NCBI GenBank assembly: GCA_934230415.1
Contig: CAKQEW010000002.1
Coordinates: forward strand, 64,783 to 128,782
Source: an uncultured Alphaproteobacteria bacterium
Lineage (GTDB): Bacteria > Pseudomonadota > Alphaproteobacteria > Rs-D84
Length of the DNA stretch: 64,000 bases
Direction: 5' to 3'
Shown: piece after piece, positions 6,142 to 64,000 of the stretch
Layout: each line of letters starts with the position of its first letter
Position numbering within the stretch: position 1 is the first letter of the stretch
The notes under the pieces: model-generated
Databases searched by the model: none
What the model was told of the DNA's origin: nothing
What the model saw: the letters and a program-made list of their open reading frames with translations, nothing else
Made by a program: the position numbers and the translations under genes

Positions 6142-9100
6142 ATGGCAGTTATCCAGAAATTTAGAAAATCTTTTGGAAAAAGTTTTTTGCAAACTCCGCT
6201 TCCTGATCTGGTTGAAATTCAATATAATTCATACAAAGATTTCTTGCAGGCTGATGTAGATCCGCAGAACCGCAAAAATATTGGTCTGCAAAACGTATTT
6301 TCGTCTATGTTCCCAATCAAGGACTATGCCGGCATCGCCGACCTGGAATTTGTTGAATACACACTGGACAAGCCGGTTTATAATGTAAAAGAATGCATGC
6401 TGCGCAATATGACATATTCCAGCAAGCTGAGATTGAAGCTGAGATTGATTTTGTGGGACATCGCCGAAGACGGTAAAAAAACTTTGCGCGATATCAAAGA
6501 ACAAGAAATATTTATGGGCGAAGTGCCGTTGATGACAGAACGCGGCAGCTTTATCGCATCGGGCGTTGAACGTGTTATTGTTTCCCAGATGCATCGTGCC
6601 CAGGGTGTTGTTTTTGCAACAACCAAAGAAGCCAAGATTGCGGGCAACCCAATCACATATACCGCGCGTATTATCCCAGAACACGGCAGCTGGATTGACT
6701 TTGAAGAATCCAAGGGTGTCATCTATGTTCGTATTGACCGCCGTCGCAAGGTTCCAGCGACCGTATTGTTGCGTTGCCTGCCGGCCGCCGAAGACGAAAA
6801 GAAATTCGCCGCCGATCCGCGCAAACCGACAATCCGCGGGATGAGTGACACGGAAATCCTGGCCAGTTTCTATTCACACATTCCATTGAAATTCAATGGT
6901 AAAATGTGGGTGGGCGATGTTGCATCGTTCGCGGGTCTGGATAAATACCGTTTGAATTACGATTTAATTAATCCAAAAGATAAAAAAGTACTGGCGGCCA
7001 AGGGTGACCGCTTGAACGCAAAACGTATGGCGAAAATCACGGCCAGCACCAAAGAATTCGGTATTTTGCCGGAATCACTGGTTGGTGAATATCTGTTTGA
7101 ACCGATTATGTCTGGGGACGAAACGGTATTCCAGGCCGGTACAGAAATCACAGACGAAGTTTTGTCTGATTTGGATAAAATGGGTATCAAGGAAATTTCC
7201 TTGATTGCGATTGACAACACAACGGTCAGTGCACACATGCGCAACACGCTGATGGCGGACAAGACCACAAATCGCGAAGAAGCCCTGATTGAAATCTATA
7301 ACATCATCCGTCCGGGTGAACGTCCAACACTGGAAGCGGCGATTAACTTGTTCCTGCGCCAGGGCTTTGATGCGGCGTTCTATGACCTGTCGGCGGTTGG
7401 TCGTTTCAAGATGAACAAGCGTTTGAAAATTGATTCTGGCAAAAAACCAGAAGATGAACGCGTTCTGACGAAATCTGATTTCTTGGCGGTGTTGAAAACA
7501 CTGACAAACATCATTGACCACAAAGACACAGTTGATGATATTGATAACCTGTCAAATCGTCGTGTCCGCGCGGTTGGTGAATTGCTGGAACAGAATTTCC
7601 GCACCGGTATGGTTCGTATTGAACGTCTGGTTCGCGAAAGCCTGTCATCGCCAAACATTGCAAATATGCAGCCCCAGGATGTCATCAATGTAAAACCGTT
7701 GATGTCACTGGTGTCTGAATTCTTGGGTACGTCCCAGTTGTCCCAGTTTATGGATGCGTATAACCCGCTGTCTGAACTGGAACACAAACGTCGTATTTCT
7801 GCGTTGGGTCCGGGGGGCTTGAACCGTGACCGTGCCGGCATTGACGTCCGCGACGTTCACCCAACACACTATGGTCGTCTGTGCCCAATTCATACACCCG
7901 AAGGTGCGAATATTGGTCTGATTAACCACATGGCGACATATGCACGTGTTAACCCATATGGATTTATTGAAACCCCATACTATGTTGTTGAAAACGGCCG
8001 CGTTACAGATAAAATGGTTTACCTGACCGCGGACGAAGAACTGGGACACAAGATTGCCCAGGGTAATACCCCAACAACAAAAGATGGCACATTGGCCGAA
8101 GAAACCGTGACGGCACGTGTTGACGGCGAATTTACCATGGTTCCAAAATCTGAAATTGACCTGATTGACGTGGCCCCACGCCAGGTGGTGTCCATCGCAA
8201 CTGGATTGATTCCGTTCGTTGAAAACGACGACGCGAACCGTGCGTTGATGGGTTCAAACATGCAGCGCCAGGCGGTTCCATTGTTGCGCGTCCAGGCCCC
8301 ATTGGTTGGTACCGGTATTGAACGCGAAGTGGCACGCGATTCCCGCACGGGCAAGGTTGCAAAGCACAGTGGTATCGTTGAATCTGTGGATGCAAACCGT
8401 ATTGTGGTTAAATGTATGAACAGCCGCAACGTTGTAACCGGTGTTGATATTTACAACCTGGAAAAATTTGACCGCAGCAACAGTGAAACATTGATTCACC
8501 AGAAACCGTTGGTCAAGGTTGGCGACCGTATTTCTGCGGGCGACATCATTGCGGACGGTTCATCAATGAACTATGGTGAATTGGCACTGGGACGTAACGT
8601 TCTGGTCGCATTTGTGCCATGGCGTGGTTATAACTATGAAGACGCGATTGTGATTTCCGAACGTATTTCACGCCAGGATATATTCACATCTGTTAAAATC
8701 GTTGAAAAAGAATTCAAGGTTCGTGATACCCAGTTGGGTCCAGAAAGTCTGACCCGTGATATTCCAAATGTCAGCGAGGAAGCACTGAAAAACCTGGACG
8801 AATCCGGTATCATTTACGTTGGTGCACGTGTGAAGCAGGGCGACATCTTGGTCGGTCGTGTTTCGCCAAAATCTGAAACGTTATTGACCCCCGAAGAAGC
8901 GTTGCTGCGTAACATCTTTGGTGAAAAGGCATTGAACGTCAAAGATACGTCACTGCGCGTTGGGCCGAACGAAGAAGGTACAGTTATCGGTGTGAACGTC
9001 TTGACCCGTCATGGGGTAAAGAAAGACGAACGTACCCAGATGATTGAACTGCAAAAAATTGAACAGATTAACAAAGACCGCGATGAAGAAACATCTATCA

Positions 9101-32014: not shown

Positions 32015-32464
32015 GCATACAAATAACTTGCAAAATACAATGTGAAAATGTATCATAGCAGATGAATCTTATGGGAATAAGGTTCGGGATCTTCAAAAAT
32101 CCTGATGTACCGCGGTGCAAAGAAAATGTTGCGCCGTAATCCGCACAATAATGCGGCGCGATTGCGCCATTTATTGTGTTCAGACCCCGTCAATTTGGTC
32201 GGGGGGCCGCCAGCGTATACCACAGGGGGAACCCAAAGACTGGCGGGGTCATTTGGTACAATGATTTTTGAACCTCCCGGCCACCATTTTATTGGTGGTT
32301 TTCTTTTTCCTGTAATTTTCATTTGTTGTATGGGCGGAATCGGGTTATCGCAAGAAATCCGAAAACTGTAAGATTTATATGATCTGTCGGTTGTTTGAAC
32401 AATTCCGCCCACCCATAGGAAAAAGGTGCATTATGCCAAAACGTTTTGTTTTTGCGCAACTTTA

Positions 32465-32488: not shown

Positions 32489-32601
32489 GGGACGTTTGCG
32501 TGACTGCATAAATGCGGTTCTGGTGCGTACTTTTTCAAATTTTGAATTTGTCCCATTGTGTAAAACAAATTGGAAATAAAAATAAGTCAGGAGAAAAAAG
32601 T

Positions 32602-34125
32602 ATGAAAATTATTATCCAAGCGGGTGGTATGGGTACCAGAATGCAGGCGTTAACGCATGTAAAGCCAAAGGTTTTGGTCACGGCGAAATATATGCCGATT
32701 ATTTTCCATATGTTCAAGAAGTATCCAAAGGATGAATTTATCATTATTGGCGACTATAAATTTGACGTGTTGGACCGTTATTTGGCCACGTTTGCCAAGG
32801 ATGTTAATTACATTTTGTTAAAGGCCGATAAAAAGGGTAATGCCGCCGGCATCAAGGAAGCCGTTGCGTGTGTTCCTGATGGCGAACCGTTTATGATTGT
32901 GTGGTCTGACATCATTTTATCCGAAGCGTTCAATGTTAATGAAATTCCGCATGGGTGCCAGGTCGGCGTTGTTGATTTCCCATGTTCATGGAGTATCAAG
33001 GACAATAAACTGGTTCATGAAGCGATACCTGGAATGGGCGTTGGTGGCCTGTATGTATTTGATGACAAATCGTGGTTTGATGATTTCCCAGGCGAAGGTT
33101 CGTTTACAACGTGGTTGGCGAACAAGGATATTCCATTGCACCCAATATCATTGATGGGCAGTATTGATGTCGGCACATTGGAGGCATACAAACGCCTGTC
33201 GTCAACGGCAAATCGTTGTCGGCCATATAATAAGATTGAATTTATTGATGGGCGTGTTGTAAAAACAGGCCTGACCCCGGATGCGGTTAAATTGATTCAG
33301 CGTGAAATTGAATGGTATGAAAAAATCAGCAGCTATGGTTTCCATGCCATCCCAAAGATTTATTCAACTAATCCATTAACAATGGAAATTATCAAGGGAA
33401 AAAATATTTTCTTGGCCGATTTGGATAAAGACGGAAAACGCGAAACAATCCATAAAATTGTTGACGCATTGGCAACAATGCATGGATATGAAACGGCGCC
33501 GGCGTCTGCGTGGGATTTGTATACGGAATATTTTAAAAAGACCATACATCGCCTGGAATCAATCATGTTTGCGATTCCGTTCGCGTTTGATGAAACAATC
33601 AACATCAATGGTACAACGTGCAAAAACGTGCTGTATCATCCGCATTTGTTGCGTGCGGCGGTATTGGACACACTGATGCATACGCATTACGGGCCAATTC
33701 ATGGCGATTGCCAATTAACAAACACGATGATTGATGAATCTGGGCGTGTGTTCTTTATTGATGCACGTGGTTATTTCGGCAAGAGCAAAATCTTGGGCGA
33801 TGTCAGATACGACTGGGCCAAGGTGTACTATGCAATTTCCGGTAATTTTGATCAATTTAACGTCAAGAATTTTGACTTTGATGTGCAACCAGACGGTGTG
33901 AATTTCCAGATTCACAGTGGTGGTTGGGAAGATTTGACAGAATATTTCCTGGATATGATTCCGCGCAGCGAGGCAAATATCAAAGAAATTAAACTGATTC
34001 ATGCGATTATATGGTTGTCGCTGGCATCGCACGCATGGGAAGATTTTGATTCCATGTGTATTGCGTTCTATAACGGAACATTGTTGTTTAACCAGTGGTT
34101 GGCGGAGTATGGCAATGACAAATAA
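32602..34125 (+). CDS. Bifunctional sugar/alcohol-phosphate nucleotidyltransferase (LicC/MurU-like) plus aminoglycoside-phosphotransferase-fold kinase (LicA/AmgK-like)
   Basis: Start at the ATG at 32602 after AGGAG. The N-terminal IIQAGGMGTRM is the NTP-transferase G-loop. The C-terminal HGDCQLTNTMIDESGRVFFIDARG is the APH/choline-kinase Brenner and DFG-like motifs. Confidence 0.6.
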   Translation: MKIIIQAGGMGTRMQALTHVKPKVLVTAKYMPIIFHMFKKYPKDEFIIIGDYKFDVLDRYLATFAKDVNYILLKADKKGNAAGIKEAVACVPDGEPFMIVWSDIILSEAFNVNEIPHGCQVGVVDFPCSWSIKDNKLVHEAIPGMGVGGLYVFDDKSWFDDFPGEGSFTTWLANKDIPLHPISLMGSIDVGTLEAYKRLSSTANRCRPYNKIEFIDGRVVKTGLTPDAVKLIQREIEWYEKISSYGFHAIPKIYSTNPLTMEIIKGKNIFLADLDKDGKRETIHKIVDALATMHGYETAPASAWDLYTEYFKKTIHRLESIMFAIPFAFDETININGTTCKNVLYHPHLLRAAVLDTLMHTHYGPIHGDCQLTNTMIDESGRVFFIDARGYFGKSKILGDVRYDWAKVYYAISGNFDQFNVKNFDFDVQPDGVNFQIHSGGWEDLTEYFLDMIPRSEANIKEIKLIHAIIWLSLASHAWEDFDSMCIAFYNGTLLFNQWLAEYGNDK

Positions 34126-53187: not shown

Positions 53188-53277
53188 GGATGGGTGGCAG
53201 AGCGGTCGAATGCGACGGTCTTGAAAACCGCTGAAGGGGCAACTCTTCCGGGGGTTCGAATCCCTCCCCATCCGCCA
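53188..53277 (+). tRNA. tRNA-Ser (anticodon TGA), class II with a long variable arm
   Basis: GGATGGGTGGCAGAGCGGTCGAATGCGACGGTCTTGAAAACCG...GGGGGTTCGAATCCCTCCCCATCCGCCA. Followed by an 11-bp perfect hairpin (ACATCCCGTGG-TAAT-CCACGGGATGT). Confidence 0.85.
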
Positions 53278-53499: not shown

Positions 53500-54369
53500 A
53501 TGAATGCTAAACAAAAGCGCAATGGAGATAAATTTGGCATGGAGTGGATAAAGGATAATGCTTTCGCATTAGTCTGGTTACTGCTGTTTTTTGCTGCCGT
53601 GTTCAATGTTGGATATTTTTTGACCTTAGACTTAAAATATATCGGTTTTTTGAGTGTAAGTGACTACTATGCAGGAACAATGATATATCTTGGTTTAATG
53701 CTATTGGTGGCGTTTGGACTATGTTTATCATTTAATCTCAGAACAAAAAATACTTGGGTACAAGCCGGTAGAGCTTTTTTGTTTTGGATGAAAAATATTA
53801 TACATTTATTTAGATGCAACGTTTCTTTAATATACGAAAAATGGCAAATCAAAATAATGTTAAAAAAAATGCAGGAATATGGGACCAAACGCTATATACA
53901 GATATGGACGAAACGAACCAAAAAATTAGAAGATAAAATCTTATCGATAAAAAATGAAATAATAGGATTGCAAAAGACAGCAGTTAAAAATATTCTTAAT
54001 ATTTTAATAACAATCGGTTTTCTCTCGCTTATTAGCTTTTTAGTGTTTTATGATATTTATATACTTTCTGGTCTAAAACCCGCAATAGTAATGGTAGCTC
54101 TATTTATCGGTGGACTGTGTATGGATTCATTGGTTTCTAATGCACTCATGAGAAAAATCGTATTAGTAATAATAATTGCCGCATTTACAACTGCTTTGGG
54201 CTATAGTGTACTGATGCGTGATTTGCAAAGAAGTAATATTCAGATATGTGCAGAAACTGATTGTTTCTATCTTGTAAGAAAAATTGAAAAAGGATACTTT
54301 GTAACTAATACAACAGAGCTGTTGTTTTTAGACAACGAATTGAATATAAAAACCAGACAGAAGATGTGA
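53500..54369 (+). CDS. AT-rich multi-pass membrane protein (hypothetical; island edge)
   Basis: 289 aa with about 6 TM helices. Very low GC compared with neighbouring genes. Confidence 0.4.
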   Translation: MNAKQKRNGDKFGMEWIKDNAFALVWLLLFFAAVFNVGYFLTLDLKYIGFLSVSDYYAGTMIYLGLMLLVAFGLCLSFNLRTKNTWVQAGRAFLFWMKNIIHLFRCNVSLIYEKWQIKIMLKKMQEYGTKRYIQIWTKRTKKLEDKILSIKNEIIGLQKTAVKNILNILITIGFLSLISFLVFYDIYILSGLKPAIVMVALFIGGLCMDSLVSNALMRKIVLVIIIAAFTTALGYSVLMRDLQRSNIQICAETDCFYLVRKIEKGYFVTNTTELLFLDNELNIKTRQKM

Positions 54370-54370
54370 A

Positions 54371-55963
54371 TTAGAATAGTTTACTATTATTAGCTATTTT
54401 AAACAAATCGTTAATGTTGATTTTTAATTTCCCAGACAAGATTTGATTTATCTTTTCTGGATTTATATATGCTAGGTCGATATAGCGATAAAACTGACGT
54501 GGAGAAATGTGTTCTGATACGATGATTGTGTCCGCGTCACCGCATTCTTCATACATCTCCCGATATTTCCATGCAGTGGCGAAGGCTTTGACGATCAGGT
54601 GGTTGTTGTCGGTAATGGTCAAGACCCCGTTCATGGACTTATCAAATACTGTATTCACGTATTTGCGCAGGACAATCGGGACGGTTATGACTATTCGGTT
54701 GTCAACGACCGTGAATTCCATCGGGTCGGATTTCTGGTTGATGAAGTTTGCCTTTGCGAACTGCTGTAGTTTCGCGATGTCTGGCGTCAGATAACATATC
54801 AATTTTTCTTGCGAATATATAACCCTATCAACCAGTGATTGAATGAGTGCCTTCTTTTCTGTGTATTGTATATTGTGTATGTTGATACGTTTTAGTATGT
54901 CAACGGTCGCGGGCGGTAGCGCTGATAAATCTGCATCTAAGAACCGTGTTATGGTTTGAGTAGCAATTTCATCCACCTGGGGCGCGGGCAGATAGAAACC
55001 TTTGGTCGCATAATAATGAGTGTTTGTCTTGCCCTTGCCACAGGTTCGCTGGTTGGTAAATCGTACCCCATTGTGGTTAAACAGTTTACCAGTCAACAGG
55101 TTGGGTGAACCGCGTGTTTCAGATTTATTATTCGCATTGTTCCGTAATGCCACCTGAACACGATTAAATAATTCAGTGGATAATATCGCCGCATGCTCGC
55201 CCTGTGCAGTGGTGCCGTTGGTCTTATTTACAATCTGACCAATATAAGTTCTGTCGCGCAGAATGCGATGCATACTCATTTTTGCAATTGGTCGCCCACC
55301 TTTTGTTATGCCCTTGGCTGTTGTCCATTGTTTTGCGTGTATGTTGTGCGCCGCGGCATATTCGGTCAACGCATTTACAGATTGCAGTTCCAGATATTTT
55401 TCAAACAAGTGTCGAACGTTTGCAGCTTCGGCCTCGTTCGGAATTAACGTTTTATTTACCACGTCATAACCAAGTGGTGGATTGCCGCCCATCCATAGAC
55501 CTTTGGCCTTACTCGCACGGATTTTATCGCGCACACGTTCACTTGATACTTCGCGCTCAAACTGGGCAAATGACAGCAGCATATTCAGCGTCAGTTTCCC
55601 CATAGATGTACTGGTGTCAAACGACTGGGTAATGGACACGAAATTCGCACCATATTTTTCGAAATACTTCATCATGTTATGAAAATCCAGAATTGAACGC
55701 GACAATCGATCAACCTTGTACACAACAACAGTGTTGACCAGACCATGCGCCATATCATCCAACATTTGTTTAAGCGCAGGCCGTTCCATCGTGCCACCAG
55801 ATATCGCTGCGTCGGTATAAGTCTTGTAATATTGCCATCCGTTAAACGATTGGGACGCAATATATGCCTTGCAGGATTCTTCCTGATTTTGCAGGGAATT
55901 AAATTCCATGTCCAATCCGTGCTCGGTGGACTTACGCACATAAATCGCACATCTATTTGGCAT
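54371..55963 (-). CDS. Large serine recombinase (resolvase N-terminal domain plus recombinase and zinc-ribbon domains)
   Basis: N-terminal CAIYVRKST...S...R catalytic-serine region (YKVDRLSRS). About 530 aa, typical of phage integrase-type serine recombinases. Confidence 0.85.
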   Translation of the reverse strand: MPNRCAIYVRKSTEHGLDMEFNSLQNQEESCKAYIASQSFNGWQYYKTYTDAAISGGTMERPALKQMLDDMAHGLVNTVVVYKVDRLSRSILDFHNMMKYFEKYGANFVSITQSFDTSTSMGKLTLNMLLSFAQFEREVSSERVRDKIRASKAKGLWMGGNPPLGYDVVNKTLIPNEAEAANVRHLFEKYLELQSVNALTEYAAAHNIHAKQWTTAKGITKGGRPIAKMSMHRILRDRTYIGQIVNKTNGTTAQGEHAAILSTELFNRVQVALRNNANNKSETRGSPNLLTGKLFNHNGVRFTNQRTCGKGKTNTHYYATKGFYLPAPQVDEIATQTITRFLDADLSALPPATVDILKRINIHNIQYTEKKALIQSLVDRVIYSQEKLICYLTPDIAKLQQFAKANFINQKSDPMEFTVVDNRIVITVPIVLRKYVNTVFDKSMNGVLTITDNNHLIVKAFATAWKYREMYEECGDADTIIVSEHISPRQFYRYIDLAYINPEKINQILSGKLKININDLFKIANNSKLF

Positions 55964-56393
55964 TTTTGCTCCTTTTATTTAATCCAAAGAATTCTGTTCC
56001 GGATATTTTTATCCCGGTGATCTCTCGGGCGATACCGGATAATGACCGAAACTTGCGACCGCTATAACAGAATGTGCCGTCATCATTTGCTGTAACATTA
56101 TGTTCAATTCCGCGAAATGTGCGCCTTAAAATCGCGCCCGGTCGGATAGCGTATTTGTTTTTATAGACCCGTGTAGCGCATTCGGCAGGATTGTCTTTGT
56201 ATTTCTTGATTTTGTTCAGGAACTTTGGCTCAATTCGCAGTTTCAGACGGTCGCATTGCACGTAGTACCAAAGCGCCCGCATTTGTCGTTTGAAGGGATG
56301 TGGACTGTATTTTGCCCATATCGCCGCCCGATCTGCAAATGGCATCGCCCGCAATTCATCCAGCGTTGTTGGTAATTCAGTTTTCGCCATCAC
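55953..56393 (-). CDS. DUF2924-like small protein partnered with the serine recombinase
   Basis: 146 aa. Overlaps the recombinase start by 11 nt. Resembles the accessory proteins commonly encoded upstream of large serine recombinases. Confidence 0.35.
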   Translation of the reverse strand: MMAKTELPTTLDELRAMPFADRAAIWAKYSPHPFKRQMRALWYYVQCDRLKLRIEPKFLNKIKKYKDNPAECATRVYKNKYAIRPGAILRRTFRGIEHNVTANDDGTFCYSGRKFRSLSGIAREITGIKISGTEFFGLNKRSKNAK

Positions 56394-56582
56394 CGACTCC
56401 TCTTAAGGTTGTGCAATTACTGCTTACATTGGGAGCGAAGTCAAGAACAAAAACAAAGTATTTATAATAAGTTATGTGATTATGAAAAATTCTAAATGGC
56501 CATCACTGTATATTATATAGCAATACGGGCAAAAAATAACCTCCGTATTGCGGCCAAAAACAACCAAACATGGAGGTATTAT

Positions 56583-57887
56583 ATGGCAAATTTAACAATT
56601 GAAAATATGGCGCTGAATCAAATTCGTGTCTATGCAAAAAACACAAAAAGTCACCCCGAGGGGCAAATTCAGCAAATAGCAGCATCTATCCGGCAATTTG
56701 GGTTTAATAATCCAATACTGGTGGATGAGAATTTGGAAATTATCGCCGGACACGGTCGCATGGACGCTGCACAAATATTGGGGCTGAAAACTGTGCCCGT
56801 TATCAGACTGTCGCATTTGTCAGAGGCACAAAAGCGCGCTTATCGTTTGGCTGATAATAAAATCGCCGAAAATGGTGGTTGGAATGCGGATTTGTTGCGC
56901 CTAGAAATATCCGAATTGGAACAAATCTGTGACGATATGGATATATCCATTACAGGATTTACGGATGTCGAGTTAGATATCTTGGCGATGGACGATAGAC
57001 CAACCGCAGCATCCAAGGTAAATAACGTGCCATACATCCCCGAAAACGAAATCGTAACGCGCCTTGGTGATGTGTGGCGCATTGGTGACCATCGGATTAT
57101 TTGTGGCAACAGTTTGGATAGTGGTGCCTTTGAAAGACTGTTGGGCAATAGGCAGGCGGATATGGTTCTGCAAGATCCGCCATATAACGTGAAAATCAGT
57201 GGTCACGTATGTGGCGCGGGTAACGTACACCATAAAGAATTTATGATGGCATCGGGCGAGATGAGCACGGACGAGTTCACGCAGTTTTTACGCAAGAACT
57301 TTGATTTGTGTGCGAAATATTCGCGTCCTGGGGCATTGCAGTACAATTTTATGGATTGGCGCCACATGGGCGAAATATTGGCCGCGGGAACGGGCGCGTT
57401 TTCAGGTCTGATAAACATGTGCGTCTGGTGCAAGTCTTCGGGCGGCATGGGCAGTCTGTATCGCAGTCAACACGAACTCTGCTTTATATTCAAAAACGGT
57501 GAAGATGCGCATGTCAACAATGTCAAGCTTGGCTCGAATGGTCGATATCGTACAAATGTTTGGCAGTACGCGGGTGTAAATGCGTTCGGACGGCACAAAA
57601 ATGATATAAAAATGCACCCAACGGTAAAGCCTGTTGAAATGCTGAAAGATGCGATATTGGACGTCACACGGCGCGGCGATATTGTTTTGGATGCTTTTCT
57701 GGGCTCGGGCAGCACACTGATTGCTGCGCATCAATCTAAACGCGTTTGCTATGGCATTGAACTTGATCCGCTGTATGTTGATACATCAATTCGCCGATTT
57801 TTCGACTTGTTTGGCATAGATGCCATACACGAAGCATCTGGTAAAACGTATTCAGAATTACTAGTCACCCGGCGGGAGGTCGCGTAA
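56583..57887 (+). CDS. ParB-like nuclease domain fused to a DNA methyltransferase (N6-A/N4-C, DPPY motif)
   Basis: N-terminal ParB/Srx fold (ILVDENLEIIAGHGR), DPPYNV, and a C-terminal FxGxG AdoMet motif (DAFLGSGSTLIAA). Common in phage packaging modules. Confidence 0.75.
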   Translation: MANLTIENMALNQIRVYAKNTKSHPEGQIQQIAASIRQFGFNNPILVDENLEIIAGHGRMDAAQILGLKTVPVIRLSHLSEAQKRAYRLADNKIAENGGWNADLLRLEISELEQICDDMDISITGFTDVELDILAMDDRPTAASKVNNVPYIPENEIVTRLGDVWRIGDHRIICGNSLDSGAFERLLGNRQADMVLQDPPYNVKISGHVCGAGNVHHKEFMMASGEMSTDEFTQFLRKNFDLCAKYSRPGALQYNFMDWRHMGEILAAGTGAFSGLINMCVWCKSSGGMGSLYRSQHELCFIFKNGEDAHVNNVKLGSNGRYRTNVWQYAGVNAFGRHKNDIKMHPTVKPVEMLKDAILDVTRRGDIVLDAFLGSGSTLIAAHQSKRVCYGIELDPLYVDTSIRRFFDLFGIDAIHEASGKTYSELLVTRREVA

Positions 57888-58255
57888 TGAAAGACTACGA
57901 AATGGGATATATGAAACCGCCCAAATCGGGACAATTTCGTCCTGGTCAATCGGGTAACCCCAAGGGGCGACCCAAGGGCAGTAAAAATACATACAAGTTA
58001 TTGGATGAAATTTTAAACGAAAAAGTTCAAATCGTTAAAAACGGCAATCCAATCAAAATACCTAAAAAGTTAGCGATGTTATTACAGGCGGCAAACAAGG
58101 CGGCCAAAGGTGACCTAAAAGCGCTTCAGATTTTAATCCCTTTGATGATAGAGGCGGATAATAAAAATGAAGAACTGGCCAAGGTCGCGGCGACCATCCG
58201 CCAGGATGACATGACCATAGTCAAACAATTTTTAAAGGATAATAAAAATGGATAA
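57887..58255 (+). CDS. DUF5681-like protein, putative terminase small subunit
   Basis: N-terminus YEMGYMKPPKSGQFRPGQSGNPKGRPKGSKN. Immediately precedes and overlaps terL. Confidence 0.4.
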   Translation: MKDYEMGYMKPPKSGQFRPGQSGNPKGRPKGSKNTYKLLDEILNEKVQIVKNGNPIKIPKKLAMLLQAANKAAKGDLKALQILIPLMIEADNKNEELAKVAATIRQDDMTIVKQFLKDNKNG

Positions 58256-59684
58256 AAATATATTTAACGCAATATTGCGTACAGATTTTAAATCTTTTGT
58301 CATAAAGGTGTTCAATGAGGTATCGCCCGGCTCAACATATATGGATAACTGGCATATAGACGTTATCTGTGATGCCGTTATGAATATGTATGATGCCGAA
58401 AATCGACGTTTAATAATAAATATGCCACCGCGATATATGAAAAGTATAATTTGTTCGGTTGCGTTGCCTGCATGGCTGTTGGGACATAATCCCAAACTAA
58501 ACATAGGATGCGTCAGTTATAACGATGAATTGGCGGCTAAATTCGCCAATAATTGCCGTGATGTTATGCAATCCGATTGGTATCGCAATTTGTTTCCGAT
58601 GACGCGCTTGCACCCGTCAAGACAGGCTATAAATGATTTTGAAACCACCCAGGCTGGCGGTCGAATGTCCACTTCGATTGGCGGTACATTTACGGGACGT
58701 GGGGTAGATTGGTTGATAATCGATGATCCGCAAAAGGCCTCGGATGCGAATTCAGAGGCATCGCGAACGAAACTAAACGATTGGTTTGGTGCAACCGCAT
58801 ATTCGCGCCTTAATGACAAGGCAACAGGAAAGATTTTGCTGGTTATGCAACGTTTGCATCAAGATGATCTGACCGGACATTTATTGGATACTAATGCGGG
58901 ATTCAAGGTTGTTAAACTCCCCGTTATTGCAACCGAGGATGAAACATGGATAATTAAAAATCGAGTTTTCGGCACAACGCAGACAATTTCTCGCCAACAA
59001 GGAGAACTGTTGCATCCTGCGCGTGAAAATGCACAAATTGTGGCGGAAATAAAGGAGTCTATGGGTGAGTATGCATTTGTTGCACAATATCAGCAAGACC
59101 CATGCCCGCCAGAAGGCGGAATTGTCAAAGAGTCGTGGCTGAAATATTATGAGGATGCTGCCATAAATTCGCGACTTCAACCGAAGCACGTGTTTATCAG
59201 TTGGGATACAGCTAATAAGACGGGTGATAATAACGCGTATTCTGTTGGGTGCGTAATTCTTATGACAAACAACTATAAATTTTACCTAATAGATATAATT
59301 AGAGGGAAATGGGATACGCCGCAATTATTTGATAAAATAATAGAGGTATATAACGAATATAAATATGACCAACAGGCCGGTAATTATGTGAAATTGTTGA
59401 TAGAGGACAAGGCTAGTGGCGAGTTCCTTATCCCGATGTTAGGTAAGGCACGTGATCGTATCGGTCGGCGGATAGAGGTTGTACCCATTAAACCTACGAT
59501 AGATAAAATATCTCGCGCAAAGGCATTAGGTGTTATGATTGAAAAAGGGAATTTGCTATTTCCACAAAAAGATGAAGCCTGGTGGCAAAATTGTAAAAAG
59601 GAACTACTGGGGTTCCCAAATACAAAATATAAAGATCAGGTTGATGCCATGTCACAGTGTATAAACTATGCCATGCAACAATAA
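58248..59684 (+). CDS. terL: Phage terminase large subunit
   Basis: ATPase N-domain with a Walker B-like block (WLIIDDPQK) and a C-terminal RNaseH-like nuclease block (ISWDTANKTGDNNAYSVGCVIL...DQVDAMSQ). Confidence 0.8.
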   Translation: MDKNIFNAILRTDFKSFVIKVFNEVSPGSTYMDNWHIDVICDAVMNMYDAENRRLIINMPPRYMKSIICSVALPAWLLGHNPKLNIGCVSYNDELAAKFANNCRDVMQSDWYRNLFPMTRLHPSRQAINDFETTQAGGRMSTSIGGTFTGRGVDWLIIDDPQKASDANSEASRTKLNDWFGATAYSRLNDKATGKILLVMQRLHQDDLTGHLLDTNAGFKVVKLPVIATEDETWIIKNRVFGTTQTISRQQGELLHPARENAQIVAEIKESMGEYAFVAQYQQDPCPPEGGIVKESWLKYYEDAAINSRLQPKHVFISWDTANKTGDNNAYSVGCVILMTNNYKFYLIDIIRGKWDTPQLFDKIIEVYNEYKYDQQAGNYVKLLIEDKASGEFLIPMLGKARDRIGRRIEVVPIKPTIDKISRAKALGVMIEKGNLLFPQKDEAWWQNCKKELLGFPNTKYKDQVDAMSQCINYAMQQ

Positions 59685-59715: not shown

Positions 59716-60138
59716 TCAATATTCTTTCCGTTCAACGATACAATCCCTTTCCCATGAAAAACATTCTTGTTTTTGAATATCTTTTTGGGCGCAATCCCCA
59801 TAATACACAGGAACGGTTCTTTGGGCACTTGTCGCCGTTGTAAATGAGAATGATTTACGTGTATTCTCCAAAATTCCAGACCATACATAGTATTGGCCAT
59901 CAACCCATTCATTCTCGTATTTACAATTCTCCAGAATTAATTTAACACTGTATACAACACCCCATTTTTCTCCTTGTGGTCCCAGATAGCCAACATTCGC
60001 TAATACAACTTTTTTTGTGTCTGACTGGTCAAGCACCTGATGAACATAAGCCCAATGTTTGACCTCTACATCTCTGGTTCCTGTGGTACAAGAGGTTAAG
60101 CTCAATAATCCTAATATAAAAAATGATACTTTTTTCAT
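59716..60138 (-). CDS. Small lipoprotein (hypothetical)
   Basis: Lipobox (LLSLTSCTT). 140 aa. Last gene of the minus-strand cassette. Confidence 0.4.
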   Translation of the reverse strand: MKKVSFFILGLLSLTSCTTGTRDVEVKHWAYVHQVLDQSDTKKVVLANVGYLGPQGEKWGVVYSVKLILENCKYENEWVDGQYYVWSGILENTRKSFSFTTATSAQRTVPVYYGDCAQKDIQKQECFSWERDCIVERKEY

Positions 60139-60142
60139 TTTG

Positions 60143-60826
60143 CTACTCCTTTGGTGGTATTTTGACTAATAAAAATTTGAACAGGCCGTTTTGTGCAGTC
60201 ATCTCATAGAAATCCTGCCAAGTAAATTCATAGTTGTTCCTGATATCCAAATTTGGACGCGTTTTTAGCAATTTTTCTGGATTTGTGCAGTTGGCTAAAT
60301 TCCAGTTATATTCCCCTTTGTATTTGGCTCCGGGGCTTATGCGAAATGCATATGCCTGAGTTTTTATATTGCATTGACCGTTCCAATAATATTTATCGTT
60401 GGCAATGCATATAAAAATACCACTGTGGGCAAAGCCAGAATCAACCAATCTCTCTATGCGCGATATGTCTTTCCAACAGTCATAACAACCTTCGTCTTCT
60501 GCCCCTTGGGATTTTAATATATCTCTGATCGGAATACCGGTGTCTTCATATAATGTGTCTGAGTCTATTTGGTCGGTCTTGTATTTTAATTCAATAGGGA
60601 ACCTTTTGCCATCAGCTATAATCAGAATATCGATATAAATCGTTCGCCATTTGTTGTCGTATATGCGCACAGGAAATTCACGGTATATTTTGACGTTCGA
60701 CCAATCTTTAAATGCCTGCATCAATTCCCAGGTAAAAGATGCCTGAAAATCAGCCTCTGACACAAAGAAACGATGTTTTTGTTTCAGGTTTTTAAATGCA
60801 GAAATAATAGATTCTGTAATATTCAC
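60143..60826 (-). CDS. PD-(D/E)xK nuclease-fold protein (hypothetical)
   Basis: GTG start. Motif arrangement E(SEADFQ)...D(IYIDILI)...ExK(PIELKYK) with the spacing of restriction-endonuclease-like nucleases. 227 aa. Confidence 0.35.
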   Translation of the reverse strand: MNITESIISAFKNLKQKHRFFVSEADFQASFTWELMQAFKDWSNVKIYREFPVRIYDNKWRTIYIDILIIADGKRFPIELKYKTDQIDSDTLYEDTGIPIRDILKSQGAEDEGCYDCWKDISRIERLVDSGFAHSGIFICIANDKYYWNGQCNIKTQAYAFRISPGAKYKGEYNWNLANCTNPEKLLKTRPNLDIRNNYEFTWQDFYEMTAQNGLFKFLLVKIPPKE

Positions 60827-60829
60827 ACC

Positions 60830-61090
60830 CGTTTTCCCTTTTTATAAACAAAGACCGTCAACAGAATTGACGGCCGGGGAGTTGGTGTCAGCAAACGAAT
60901 GCTCCGTGCTTTCGGGCAAGCCCTGTTGTATAGCGAACGGCTCCCCGACCACAGTCGGGGGACTTTAACGACAAATTTGTGCCGCGTCTGCGGGCCACCA
61001 CAGCCCCGAACCCAATTCCCATTGGATTCAGTGAGAATTTTACCGTGAGAAATAAAGTAAATCAAGTTGATTTATGAAGATAAAGATTAA
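60830..61090 (-). ncRNA. GC-rich, highly structured non-coding element between the S8 protease gene and the nuclease-fold gene (candidate ncRNA)
   Basis: About 55% GC inside a cassette of about 35% GC. Multiple perfect hairpins (CCGTCAA-CAGAA-TTGACGG, GGGGAG...CTCCCC, CCCGAC-CACA-GTCGGG, CCGC-GTCT-GCGG). The only ORF is an 80-aa TTG-start frame with no RBS. Confidence 0.3.
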
Positions 61091-63562
61091 TTATGCAAGA
61101 ACTTCTAGTATGTTTCTCACTTCTATATTATTTTCAATTGGAGTGTAAATATCTATGTCAACGTCTCCCGCATCAATGCTAACAATAAGACTAAAACGCG
61201 TTCTTGTGTCTTCGGGTCTAATTTTTTTACTATCTCTCCACCACCCACCAACGCTGTAAATAGCAATATTTTTCATATCTGCTAATTCAGAACCATTTGT
61301 TATCAAGAAATCCTGATGTATCGAGCCAGCCGTACGCATTGGCGATTTCTTTCCATAAACCCATCTATCGTCTTTAGTACGCGATGCGTTTTTATGTTCA
61401 GAATCTTCCTCCGCTATATTCGCATTTATCCTATTCATAAACATAGTTTCTGTTTCAGTTGGCATTTGTAAATCAAATCGCAAATTATGTGATTGATATG
61501 CAAATTTTCTACTGTATCCTCGCGAACTTGGATTTGGTGCAACAAAATAAGATAATGTTATTTTGACTTTTATTTTCTTATCTTTTAGTTCATCGCTTTG
61601 AAATAAGTCCGTAGGCCACGGCATAGGAATCATTAAAATTTGGCAAACTTTGTCATTTTTTAACTCATTCTTTTTTACTAATCTTGGTATTATTCCATTT
61701 GCATCTCTCTTGTAGTCGTATACTTGGAACTCTTTTTCGGCGATCAATGTTAATGCGTTGTTTCCGCTATATAGTGCTTGATCTAAATTTGGTACACCGT
61801 AACCGCACATTTTGATAAAATTCGTTAATTGTTCTTTATTCCAATTTTCTGGCAGTCTTGTTGATAACATAGTTTCTGTCCATTCGGCAGAATTAACTAT
61901 TAGTCCTCTAATAGTCTCTGGCCAATATGTTGGATATTTTGCAAATAGATTACCAATAAATTGACCTGCCATACCAGTGGCAGCACTGGTCATATTAAGT
62001 CCACAGAATGAAGGATTGTTTATTGTTGAAGAACAAGTGACCAACTCAAACATATCGCCATCATATACATAGGAGTCTTTATCAATGACTTTATTTCCGC
62101 CTTCAAACACAACTTCTGGTTTTATAGGCCATTGTTTTTCAAATTTTATGGAAGTTCTAGAGTAAGGCGATAAATCGCCTGCTTGTGCATATGGAACAAA
62201 GCCACTGTTAGCACACAGTTTTTGGTCTGCTAAATTTGTATATGCTCCTACCGATAGAGAATTCCAGGACTGAGCAGGATCTTCAACACATGAATTTTTT
62301 TGGTGCTCATCATAGTCTTCTGCTTTGCATAACCCGTCAACGTTTCCAACCGATATAGCAAATAATTTACTATTTTTAAAAACAATATCATCAATTTTTG
62401 CAGACCAGCTGGTTGGAGCCCCAAATTTTTCAGAAATGTTTTCAGCAGATGCCGCCATAACATATGCATTAACAATATTCTCATCGGTATTTGTTTTATT
62501 TACAGATAGTTCTGTAATCGTTCCCCATAACTCCCGATCTGTGCCACTAGAATCGCAAATCTGAACGCTTTCTATCTTGTATGGTATAGTTATACTTTGT
62601 AAAGTTTTTGCCTGTGCTATGTCGCCAAATGCAACCAGGCTCCCCATACTAGTTGTGTGTGCATTTGTGGGACTGTTCGCAAATGTACTTACAGCTTTAA
62701 GGTTTCTGACAATTAATCGATCCAACAGCGGATGTCTGACAATAAGTCCTTCGTCCAATATTGTCATACGCACTCGGTTTGTATCATCTGGATATGTTGT
62801 TTTCCTTTCCAACTCTGCTACTATTTCATCTTGAATTTCCTGAGGTTGACCAACAATAGGAGGATTAATTTTTTTTGCTAAATGTATTTCTGTAACAACA
62901 ACATCGTAATTAGTGACAAATGTATTTAATTCTATTATAGATGCGTTACAAATAAAAACGTATCTGTCTGGAAAATCTATGTATTTCTGATTAAAAACTA
63001 ACCTACAATCATTCGCGACCTGCATAAATTTTTCTAAAGCATTTTCTTGTTTTTTGTTGATCCACAGTTCCCACCAGTGCTTATTATTATCCTCTGGTAA
63101 TAAACGAATATCGTCCATAAACAAATCAGATATTTTTATCTCGTCAGTTATGGAACCAATGCTTCCTACATATGAGAGTGTTTTGCTGCCTGGTACTGAC
63201 TCTGAATATTTTTGTGCGACCTTTTGTAGTTTGTTAAATGCTTTTCCAGATTCAACGGATACGTTAGCAGAAATGACCTTGCCGTCTTTCTCTTTTATGG
63301 AAAGTAACTCCATTCCTGAACCGGGTTGATTCAAATTTTCGAAAAACAAACCAGTTTCTGTATTGCCGTTAAATTTTATCGTATAAATCGTGTTTTCTGG
63401 ATGTCTGCTCTTAATTAATTGTATTTCATCGGACAAGCGCCTGCCATGTGCAAACCGATTTTTTATGTTCGGGATAATCTGGTTCCCGCGTCCTGTGCCT
63501 TTAAATAGACTAGGAACAATATCATCTGTTTTCAAGATTAAATGCTGTTTATTTCGTGGCAT
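61091..63562 (-). CDS. Subtilisin-like serine protease (peptidase S8) with a large N-terminal extension, IetS-like
   Basis: 823 aa. Catalytic Ser block MTSAATGMAG (GTSxAAP-like), a His block (NAHTTSMGS) and an upstream Asp. Five nt downstream of the AAA ATPase gene. Confidence 0.75.
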   Translation of the reverse strand: MPRNKQHLILKTDDIVPSLFKGTGRGNQIIPNIKNRFAHGRRLSDEIQLIKSRHPENTIYTIKFNGNTETGLFFENLNQPGSGMELLSIKEKDGKVISANVSVESGKAFNKLQKVAQKYSESVPGSKTLSYVGSIGSITDEIKISDLFMDDIRLLPEDNNKHWWELWINKKQENALEKFMQVANDCRLVFNQKYIDFPDRYVFICNASIIELNTFVTNYDVVVTEIHLAKKINPPIVGQPQEIQDEIVAELERKTTYPDDTNRVRMTILDEGLIVRHPLLDRLIVRNLKAVSTFANSPTNAHTTSMGSLVAFGDIAQAKTLQSITIPYKIESVQICDSSGTDRELWGTITELSVNKTNTDENIVNAYVMAASAENISEKFGAPTSWSAKIDDIVFKNSKLFAISVGNVDGLCKAEDYDEHQKNSCVEDPAQSWNSLSVGAYTNLADQKLCANSGFVPYAQAGDLSPYSRTSIKFEKQWPIKPEVVFEGGNKVIDKDSYVYDGDMFELVTCSSTINNPSFCGLNMTSAATGMAGQFIGNLFAKYPTYWPETIRGLIVNSAEWTETMLSTRLPENWNKEQLTNFIKMCGYGVPNLDQALYSGNNALTLIAEKEFQVYDYKRDANGIIPRLVKKNELKNDKVCQILMIPMPWPTDLFQSDELKDKKIKVKITLSYFVAPNPSSRGYSRKFAYQSHNLRFDLQMPTETETMFMNRINANIAEEDSEHKNASRTKDDRWVYGKKSPMRTAGSIHQDFLITNGSELADMKNIAIYSVGGWWRDSKKIRPEDTRTRFSLIVSIDAGDVDIDIYTPIENNIEVRNILEVLA

Positions 63563-63567
63563 AAATA

Positions 63568-64000
63568 TTACAAGCTCCGACGCGTTTCAACATCTTTTAA
63601 AAGATTTATAAGAAGAGAGGTGTCCACGATCGTACCGTCCAATATGTTTTGCTTTATTGCATTGTTACAAACTTGAGCGATTTCTGCGTAACTAAGTTTG
63701 TCGGATTCCTTCTCTATTTTTGTCCAGTTAATCCCCGCGACGTATTTTTTTGTTAAATATTTCTTAAAAGCCTCAATTCTTAATTTGTTGTCTGGTAAAT
63801 CATAATGCAGAATGTCGTCAAAACGACGGAATAGGGCTTTATCTAATAATTCTTCATGGTTTGTCGCCGCCAATATCAAGCTATCAGAACGAGAGTTTTC
63901 AATAAATTGCAGAAAAGAATTCAATATGCGACGTATTTCGCCAACATCATTCGTGGCGCCGCGACTGCTGCCAATAGCATCAAATTCGTCAAAGAAATAA
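63568..64000 (-). CDS. Classic-clade AAA+ ATPase, C-terminal part (gene continues beyond the window end), IetA-like
   Basis: In-frame translation to the window edge gives ...YFFDEFDAIGSSRG...ILAATNHEELLDKALFRRFDD... These are Walker B (DEFD), sensor-1 (ATN) and the Arg finger (RRFD). The TTG at 63924 is not the real start. Confidence 0.75.
   Translation of the reverse strand, partial: YFFDEFDAIGSSRGATNDVGEIRRILNSFLQFIENSRSDSLILAATNHEELLDKALFRRFDDILHYDLPDNKLRIEAFKKYLTKKYVAGINWTKIEKESDKLSYAEIAQVCNNAIKQNILDGTIVDTSLLINLLKDVETRRSL

Follow-up and report, generated by a model that had tools for sequence, protein, structure and literature searches.

The window analysed here is a stretch of 64,000 nucleotides (nt) of DNA from an uncultured gut alphaproteobacterium. 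Its last part (59716-64000, minus strand) harbours a gene for an AAA+ ATPase, a gene for an S8 subtilase, a GC-rich spacer, a gene for a 227-amino-acid (aa) protein and a gene for a 140-aa protein. A preliminary description had read these parts as an enlarged version of the two-gene IetAS anti-phage system, with five linked components. All the open reading frames (ORFs), gaps and gene order that it gave were reproduced, and ORF, Pfam and PADLOC results agree with its spacings and domain calls. Related loci compared with the window carry L-numbers, such as L001 and L007; L001 is the contig of the window itself, extended, recovered from human-gut metagenomes and covering the ATPase gene beyond the window end.

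The ATPase gene runs past the window end, which leaves its C-terminal 143 codons in the window (63568-64000). This fragment matches Pfam AAA (3.7e-10) and the PADLOC profile IetA (2.5e-38). Extension of the contig recovered the full IetA of 326 aa on L001 (PADLOC IetA 2.5e-72), with the gene start about 548 bp past the window end. The subtilase gene (61091-63562) follows after a gap of 5 nt and encodes IetS, a protein of 823 aa that matches Pfam Peptidase_S8 (6.8e-36, residues 266-589) and PADLOC IetS (1.7e-20), the latter with a modest score of 70.7 bits that covers mostly the protease core. The catalytic residues D270, H302 and S526, and N407 of the oxyanion hole, are invariant in 15 IetS homologues from many phyla. 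These homologues align end to end, and the 260-residue N-terminal region of IetS therefore belongs to the family and is no add-on.

Both genes match the corresponding hidden Markov model profiles of IetAS, the catalytic D/H/N/S residues are kept, and the ATPase gene lies directly before the protease gene of about 820 aa on the same strand. This order and orientation were found in all homologous loci examined, and the pair of 326 aa and about 820 aa is intact even among distant homologues. By family match, the ATPase and the protease are a canonical two-gene IetAS pair, a predicted anti-phage system carried as exchangeable cargo. IetAS is described as a plasmid-stabilising toxin-antitoxin pair by origin, and a three-gene variant, ietHAS, is known (PMC13069673). 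No architectural difference from IetAS was detected, and the pair in the window represents a diverged member from an uncultured gut alphaproteobacterium, known from sequence alone. By analogy with the published system, the IetS protease would be the toxic effector, which the IetA ATPase would hold back.

The spacer between the IetS gene and the 227-aa gene has 264 bp (60827-61090, minus strand). It includes a promoter-like motif detected by consensus scan (TTGATT-17 nt-TAAAAT, 61037-61065), a structured leader RNA of about 185 nt (60846-61030) and, closing the leader, an intrinsic-terminator-like hairpin (60853-60875) with a stem of 10 bp and TTTGTTTAT after it; 27 nt separate the hairpin from the GTG start codon of the 227-aa gene. 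The 227-aa protein (60143-60826) belongs to no Pfam or PADLOC family. An alignment of its 28 homologues is invariant at E24, D66 and E79-x-K81; the protein has a restriction-endonuclease-like core fold and the D...(D/E)xK motif, in agreement with the PD-(D/E)xK assignment made previously. A tblastn search of GenBank phages with this protein gave no match.

The 140-aa gene (59716-60138) follows the 227-aa gene after 4 nt. Its product begins with MKKVSFFILGLLSLTSC, which was read by eye from the translation as a putative signal peptide and lipobox (L-T-S-C). The sequence agrees with the pattern [LVI][ASTVI][GAS]C after a signal peptide and with the lipoprotein proposed before. The 140-aa gene is present in close relatives only; elsewhere its place is taken by a 153-aa gene, a 188-aa gene or genes of 170, 165 and 212 aa, and the genes at this position in L001 and L011 are non-homologous. 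The 140-aa gene is listed here as a replaceable second gene of the operon.

IetAS and the neighbouring operon

IetAS and the genes that follow it are very probably two independent units lying head to tail, one being cargo in a slot of an integrative island, and the other an RNA-led operon with the 227-aa gene that belongs to the island backbone. Homology between L001 and loci with different cargo (L007, L008 and L013) starts in blastn at positions 12482-12491 of L001, which correspond to 61081-61072 of the window. This right-hand junction between the variable cargo and the conserved backbone lies 10-19 bp past the IetS stop codon, at the conserved promoter-like motif. A second conserved segment of about 250 bp, the left-hand one, lies upstream of IetA, beyond the window. 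In contigs with close homologues of the 227-aa protein, one side is always composed of the 227-aa gene, a small gene, terL, DUF5681 and the ParB-methylase gene, and the other side varies.

Different known systems occupy the slot between the left-hand segment and the RNA leader. L007 possesses a class II pAgo (PADLOC pAgo_II 3.7e-214) with an Aga helical-REase; L007 and L009 encode a Piwi protein and a DpnII/MboI-like protein. L008 and L015 harbour an M78 peptidase and a Beta_protein, L022 harbours Gabija (GajA and GajB, PADLOC), and L017 and L051 harbour PD-Lambda-4-like genes (PD-Lambda-4_A by PADLOC in L051). A type II methylase (PADLOC) in L027 is also listed among the slot occupants, and IetA-IetS itself is present in L011. 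In L020, the insertion of UzuA (PADLOC) separates the RNA leader from the 227-aa gene. L013, L014 and L021 carry unknown genes in the slot, and in L012 a 227-aa homologue and the terL block adjoin unknown genes, with no full leader copy. The 227-aa gene and the RNA thus stand with the terL backbone beside at least six other cargo sets that lack IetAS, which leaves a five-part composite unsupported.

Gene pairs in three of these slots had no Pfam or PADLOC match: 966 and 245 aa (L013 6141-9720), 606 and 469 aa (L014 3049-6271), and 899 and 328 aa (L021 6084-9723). They are candidates for new defence genes. The arrangement in L020 (7491-10678) is shared by L048 (7492-10165), where the leader RNA is likewise followed by a 340-385-aa gene, a 386-aa gene and then the 227-aa homologue; the 340-385-aa gene is UzuA-like in L020. 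This arrangement indicates that cargo can also insert within the RNA-led operon.

The slot resembles the anti-phage hotspots described for P2-like phages and P4-like satellites (Rousset et al. 2022, PMC9122126), in that conserved flanks of a phage-related integrative element enclose a position with varying defence systems. Unlike those hotspots, it lies in elements of Candidatus Enterousia that encode a large serine recombinase, DUF2924, a ParB-methylase, DUF5681 and TerL; the complete islands seen, L008 and L011, are devoid of capsid and tail genes, and the right flank is formed by a structured leader RNA in place of a protein-coding gene. The locus defines a slot in which defence genes are exchanged, shared by small islands of one family with a serine recombinase and a terminase, whose hosts are uncultured gut Alphaproteobacteria. 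To our knowledge, almost nothing is known about phage defence in these bacteria.

A scan of one genome per species revealed 39 loci with a homologue of the 227-aa protein, nearly all of them labelled as Candidatus Enterousia or uncultured Alphaproteobacteria. In tblastn searches with the window proteins, terL adjoins the homologue in 18 of 30 alphaproteobacterial loci, and IetS was detected in none of the 39. IetAS next to the 227-aa gene was found in one further lineage only, L011. Sliding identity between L001 and L011 is 0.87-0.97 over IetA-IetS, 0.75-0.81 over the 227-aa gene and 0.63-0.85 over the rest of the backbone, and the step, from 0.92 to 0.79, falls inside the RNA. L011 also carries an unrelated 153-aa gene in place of the 140-aa gene. 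The identity step indicates that the history of IetAS differs from that of its neighbours even where they are adjacent. The adjacency of IetAS and the 227-aa gene was seen only in the window lineage and L011, which does not bear out the co-occurrence of all components expected by the preliminary description.

IetS homologues were also found with 77% (L099), 62% (L102), 45% (L104) and 45% (L106) identity, each with an IetA of 325 or 326 aa directly upstream. The genes after IetAS differ over these four loci and comprise a 1450-aa protein, a pyrophosphatase-like gene with a NERD gene, the genes DUF2924, DUF5681 and ParB-methylase on the opposite strand, and a 318-aa protein. Within the flanks fetched, tblastn detected no homologue of the 227-aa or the 140-aa protein in any of them, and these distant pairs therefore also leave the five-part composite without support. 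Three of the four loci lie in related elements with DUF2924, DUF5681 or the ParB-methylase, two of them with a serine recombinase, which makes IetAS a recurrent cargo of this element family. At the locus with 77% identity, a full terL lies just upstream of IetA (L099 3245-4531). Upstream of IetA in L001, a 141-aa ORF (8291-8716) includes a stretch of 51 residues that is 43% identical to the C-terminus of TerL. The terL gene in one lineage and the terL-like fragment in the other suggest that IetAS may have come from such a position in a related element, taking a terL fragment along.

The GC content is 0.35-0.37 in IetAS, 0.38-0.40 in the 227-aa and 140-aa genes, 0.41-0.48 from terL to the recombinase and 0.45-0.55 in host genes. 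The low GC content, the junction and the varying slot content agree with the earlier view of IetAS as a separately acquired cargo in a phage-like island. That the cargo is AT-rich also held, but its proposed insertion just downstream of terL did not, since the 140-aa and 227-aa genes intervene.

Some observations weigh against a separation of the two units. IetS and the leader are co-oriented with no terminator between IetS and the leader promoter, which allows read-through from IetAS into the leader, and some transcriptional coupling of the two in the window lineage is allowed accordingly. The RNA adjoins IetAS in two more loci, right after IetS in L099 and divergent from IetA in L104; the two cases are more readily accounted for by the RNA standing at the head of many operons in these islands than by a link with IetAS. 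Distant homologues of the 227-aa protein are also present in Firmicutes, in unrelated contexts.

The single system of five components, in which an IetA/IetS sensor would work with a PD-(D/E)xK nuclease effector, a lipoprotein and an RNA component, is highly improbable and largely refuted by the co-occurrence data. Besides the shared strand, the short gaps and the lack of a terminator before the spacer, it could draw on the same adjacency in L011 and on the ietHAS variant, which shows that IetAS can recruit partners (PMC13069673). Against it stand the occurrence of the 227-aa gene and the RNA with other cargo, the IetAS homologues at 77, 62 and 45% identity without the two downstream genes, the homology break and identity step between IetS and the RNA, the replacement of the 140-aa gene in L011, and the leader itself, with a conserved promoter-like motif of its own and a terminator before the 227-aa gene starts. 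The refuting conditions set in the preliminary description itself apply here, with ATPase-S8 pairs that lack the downstream genes and with a promoter-like motif belonging to the downstream genes. The RNA, the PD-(D/E)xK-fold gene and the small gene are very probably a separate operon of the island backbone. Tight linkage and shared orientation in a defence island do not make one system; IetAS is ordinary here, and the RNA family is the noteworthy by-product.

In many islands the left side of the slot encodes a protein of 216-238 aa followed by one of 141 aa, maybe a conserved accessory or defence pair. In L008 (3656-4733) the pair shows a weak DuOB match and a DUF488 match (N3a 'active' subclade), and in L013 (4254-5331) the 141-aa protein is a DUF488 protein. 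The pair is also listed, matched by ORF size only, in L015, L017, L021, L022 and L051. Three independent metagenome assemblies of the same IetS gene (L003, L004 and L006) end 89-201 nt past the IetS stop codon, inside the leader RNA, and these breaks fit a multi-copy element at a strain-variable junction.

The leader RNA

The GC-rich spacer holds a real structured RNA of about 185 nt with a terminator at its end, as the preliminary description had suspected from the spacer. Folding of the spacer is more stable than that of shuffled sequences (z -2.9). The leader is pseudoknot-like and comprises a P1 hairpin, a G/C-tract hairpin whose loop pairs far downstream, and the helices P2, P3, P4 and P5. 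RNAalifold on 27 copies gave 52 pairs, with compensatory changes in 27 of them, and the terminator stem covaries in other leader copies. The loop of the first G/C hairpin pairs with 5-6 nt just 5' of AACUCCCC. In nearly all of the 36 copies, the strands of this loop-to-3' helix and those of the long-range P2 helix are complementary, with 22 and 32 distinct helices, respectively. The TTGAT core of the promoter-like motif is nearly invariant over the 27 copies, whatever lies upstream, and the motif persists also when the closest cargo gene upstream has the opposite orientation.

A covariance model, R1, was built from Enterousia copies only, and the window leader scores 244.5 bits with it. The pattern GGTCGGGGAG-N50-80-AACTCCCCG retrieved 47 IMG/VR contigs. 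R1 was significant in 28 of these contigs and in 0 of 6 re-scanned coding false positives. In this independent viral set, whose alignment was fitted to R1 and leans toward its structure, 96.4% of the cells are paired, compared with 71% after shuffling and 41-52% with slid partners. Pairs changed on both sides number 39 of 52 (27 shuffled, 11-21 slid), and the covariation score is 0.483 (0.151 shuffled, 0.08 or less slid).

Among the pattern matches, L058, L061, L076 and L086 (identical copies), L064, L065 and L096 are coding-like sequence and were rejected as false positives, and the motif is absent from L075 and L084. The re-scan of L058, L064, L065, L075, L084 and L096 with R1 gave no match. 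Low R1 matches of 15-22 bits, AT-rich and 60-130 nt long, were set aside as partial promoter or terminator matches.

The covariance model confirmed at least 28 relatives of the leader in viral contigs and, besides these, a few among plasmid records of Shinella and Paracoccus. The copy on plasmid pShin-06 of Shinella sp. HZN7 (L110 3918-4081, 40.7 bits) follows closely on a Tn3-family resolvase gene and precedes an ISL3 transposase; no feature is annotated there in the public record. A BLASTN search with the RNA family gave no match in GenBank phages or complete E. coli genomes; this family calls for a structure-aware search.

A second, diverged copy is present in the window itself (32018-32326, plus strand, R1 161.7 bits), with a prolyl-tRNA-synthetase-like gene on one side and a 537-aa nucleotidyltransferase/APH-like kinase gene (32512-34125) on the other. 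The 537-aa gene heads a sugar-related operon with HAD-like, mannose-6-phosphate-isomerase-like and ribulose-phosphate-epimerase-like ORFs, as read from the translations. This copy shows that the leader RNA is not restricted to the island. A third full copy lies on L001 (7977-8269, minus strand, 163.8 bits), about 1.3-1.6 kb past the window end, and points away from IetA; IetAS is therefore bracketed by two diverging leader copies in the window lineage. Downstream of the third copy come a 795-aa gene, which has ParB-N-like similarity, then genes of 271, 143, 282 and 136 aa and a Fic gene.

The closest catalogued family is sRNA-Xcc1 (RF02221), a small RNA (sRNA) that the window copy matches with 27 bits (E 0.015, search of 501 nt), where the gathering score is 53. 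No leader copy reaches the threshold in Rfam 15: none of 14 viral loci does so at the gathering score, and 8 viral loci gave no match at E<=1. Membership of the spacer in sRNA-Xcc1 was thus rejected, the match being sub-threshold and the viral relatives having none. In the literature, sRNA-Xcc1 is known from integrons, genomic islands and phages, and once from upstream of an ORF6N-domain gene in APSE phages. Literature searches covering sRNA-Xcc1, riboswitches and prophages revealed no account of the longer structure of the leader.

The two RNAs are similar in several respects. The 3' half of the leader can be drawn as the Xcc1 model, with an outer G/C-rich stem around an AUACAA...CCCGAAAG hairpin and then a second hairpin. 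Both are tied to mobile elements (integrons, transposons and plasmids for Xcc1) and lie upstream of accessory genes. However, the leader RNA is about twice as long, and its covariation backs another fold, in which the region of Xcc1 hairpin 2 pairs with the 5' domain. The leader is described here as a well-supported structured family missed by Rfam 15, which occurs in phage contigs, plasmids and chromosomes, always ahead of accessory genes.

Proposed regulation by the leader

Every leader copy points into a downstream gene, and the types of these genes are highly diverse. In Enterousia and relatives they include the 227-aa operon, the 795-aa gene and its operon with the Fic gene, the 1450-aa gene, a TPR/Slam operon, UzuA, a gene before T5orf172, and the chromosomal nucleotidyltransferase/kinase gene at 32512 of the window. 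In viral contigs, the leader precedes genes for small lipoproteins, membrane proteins, a double GT2 glycosyltransferase, an outer-membrane beta-barrel protein, a tRNA_anti-like OB protein and a serine recombinase. The Enterousia copies end in an intrinsic terminator; most viral copies have no terminator and run into a Shine-Dalgarno-like sequence and a start codon.

This layout suggests that the leader most likely acts in cis. The segment GGUCGGGGAG can pair upstream with UCCCCCGAC or downstream with CUCCCCGRCC, and in the window the 5' strand of the terminator overlaps the alternative helix GGUCGGGGAG:CUCCCCGGCC. ViennaRNA gave -79.9 kcal/mol for the terminator state and -69.3 kcal/mol for the forced antiterminator state. 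In the model proposed, the compact fold, with GGUCGGGGAG paired to UCCCCCGAC, would let the terminator form and keep the operon off, and the helix of GGUCGGGGAG with CUCCCCGRCC would disrupt the terminator. In the phage relatives the same segment adjoins the ribosome-binding site, which the alternative helix would free, turning expression on upon some ligand or factor. That the leader is such a cis-acting element, off by default and switched on by a ligand or factor, has about an even chance in our estimation. A point that counts against the switch is that its G- and C-tract helices are invariant, and covariation cannot tell which pairing is used.

Similar to riboswitches and other cis-acting leaders, the RNA has a conserved, covarying core of several helices in a 5' leader, followed by a terminator in Enterousia or a ribosome-binding site in phages, and its mutually exclusive helices share one strand. 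In contrast to them, its downstream genes have no common metabolic theme and are accessory, envelope-related or defence genes of mobile elements. A broader reading is possible but tentative. The spacer may represent the first case of a pseudoknot-like class of cis-regulatory RNAs, widespread and uncatalogued, either riboswitches or factor-bound leaders. Such RNAs would gate accessory, lysogenic-conversion and defence genes in proteobacterial phages, transposons and integrative islands through a conserved three-way competition of G/C-tract helices acting on a terminator or ribosome-binding site; sRNA-Xcc1 would, on this reading, show part of a related leader. A leader shared by horizontally acquired genes would, if true, point to a common signal governing the expression of such 'morons'.

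It is unlikely that the RNA is instead a free-standing, trans-acting sRNA like sRNA-Xcc1, with its own promoter and terminator and with the 227-aa gene expressed separately. The promoter-like motif and the terminator that bracket the Enterousia copies would produce a discrete transcript of about 185 nt, and the weak resemblance to sRNA-Xcc1 points in the same direction, as that RNA was itself detected as an sRNA. Nevertheless, the passage of most viral-contig copies into a Shine-Dalgarno-like sequence and start codon is the layout of a 5' untranslated region, the copies always face a downstream gene, and the 27 nt from the terminator to the GTG start show no further evident promoter.

Hardly any credence can be given to an element that works as DNA, such as a recombination or attachment site at the edge of the cargo slot: its position exactly at the slot boundary, the three assemblies that break inside it (L003, L004 and L006) and the serine recombinases encoded by the islands would fit such a site, but compensatory changes keep Watson-Crick or G-U pairs in at least six helices, including a long-range one, which is the signature of a transcribed and folded RNA, copies are present away from any slot, such as the one before the chromosomal sugar operon (32018-32326), and three or more copies per genome, together with strain variation, account for the assembly breaks.

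The island backbone

The backbone of the island extends from the recombinase to TerL (54371-59684), and the same block lies beside the 227-aa gene in related loci. By Pfam it encodes a large serine recombinase (54371-55963) and DUF2924 (55953-56393) on the minus strand, and a ParB-N6/N4 methylase (56496-57887), DUF5681 (57887-58255) and TerL (58248-59684) on the plus strand. TerL is 33-35% identical to terminases of cultured phages. Its gene, with the stop at 59684, is convergent with the 140-aa gene, and the two share a terminator hairpin (59709-59688) with a 9-bp stem that includes 7 G-C pairs.

The host-side edge of the island is marked by a tRNA-Ser(TGA) gene (53188-53277, plus strand), found with ARAGORN and Rfam, just past which the GC content falls from 0.47 to 0.31. 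Complete relatives between host genes (L008 and L011) are about 14 kb long and possess TerL and DUF5681; L011 also possesses an HNH gene. Neither of them contains capsid or tail genes, and the island looks satellite-like rather than like a prophage.

Between the tRNA-Ser gene and the serine recombinase lies a gene (53500-54369, plus strand) of about 31% GC for a 289-aa protein of no Pfam family, which reads from its translation as a multi-pass membrane protein. It is maybe a second cargo, at the other end of the island. Two modules of DUF2924 and serine recombinase are present in L007 (2003-4037 and 12443-15313), 51-58% and 81-83% identical to those of the window. They flank the pAgo cargo and the backbone, which suggests tandem or nested elements.

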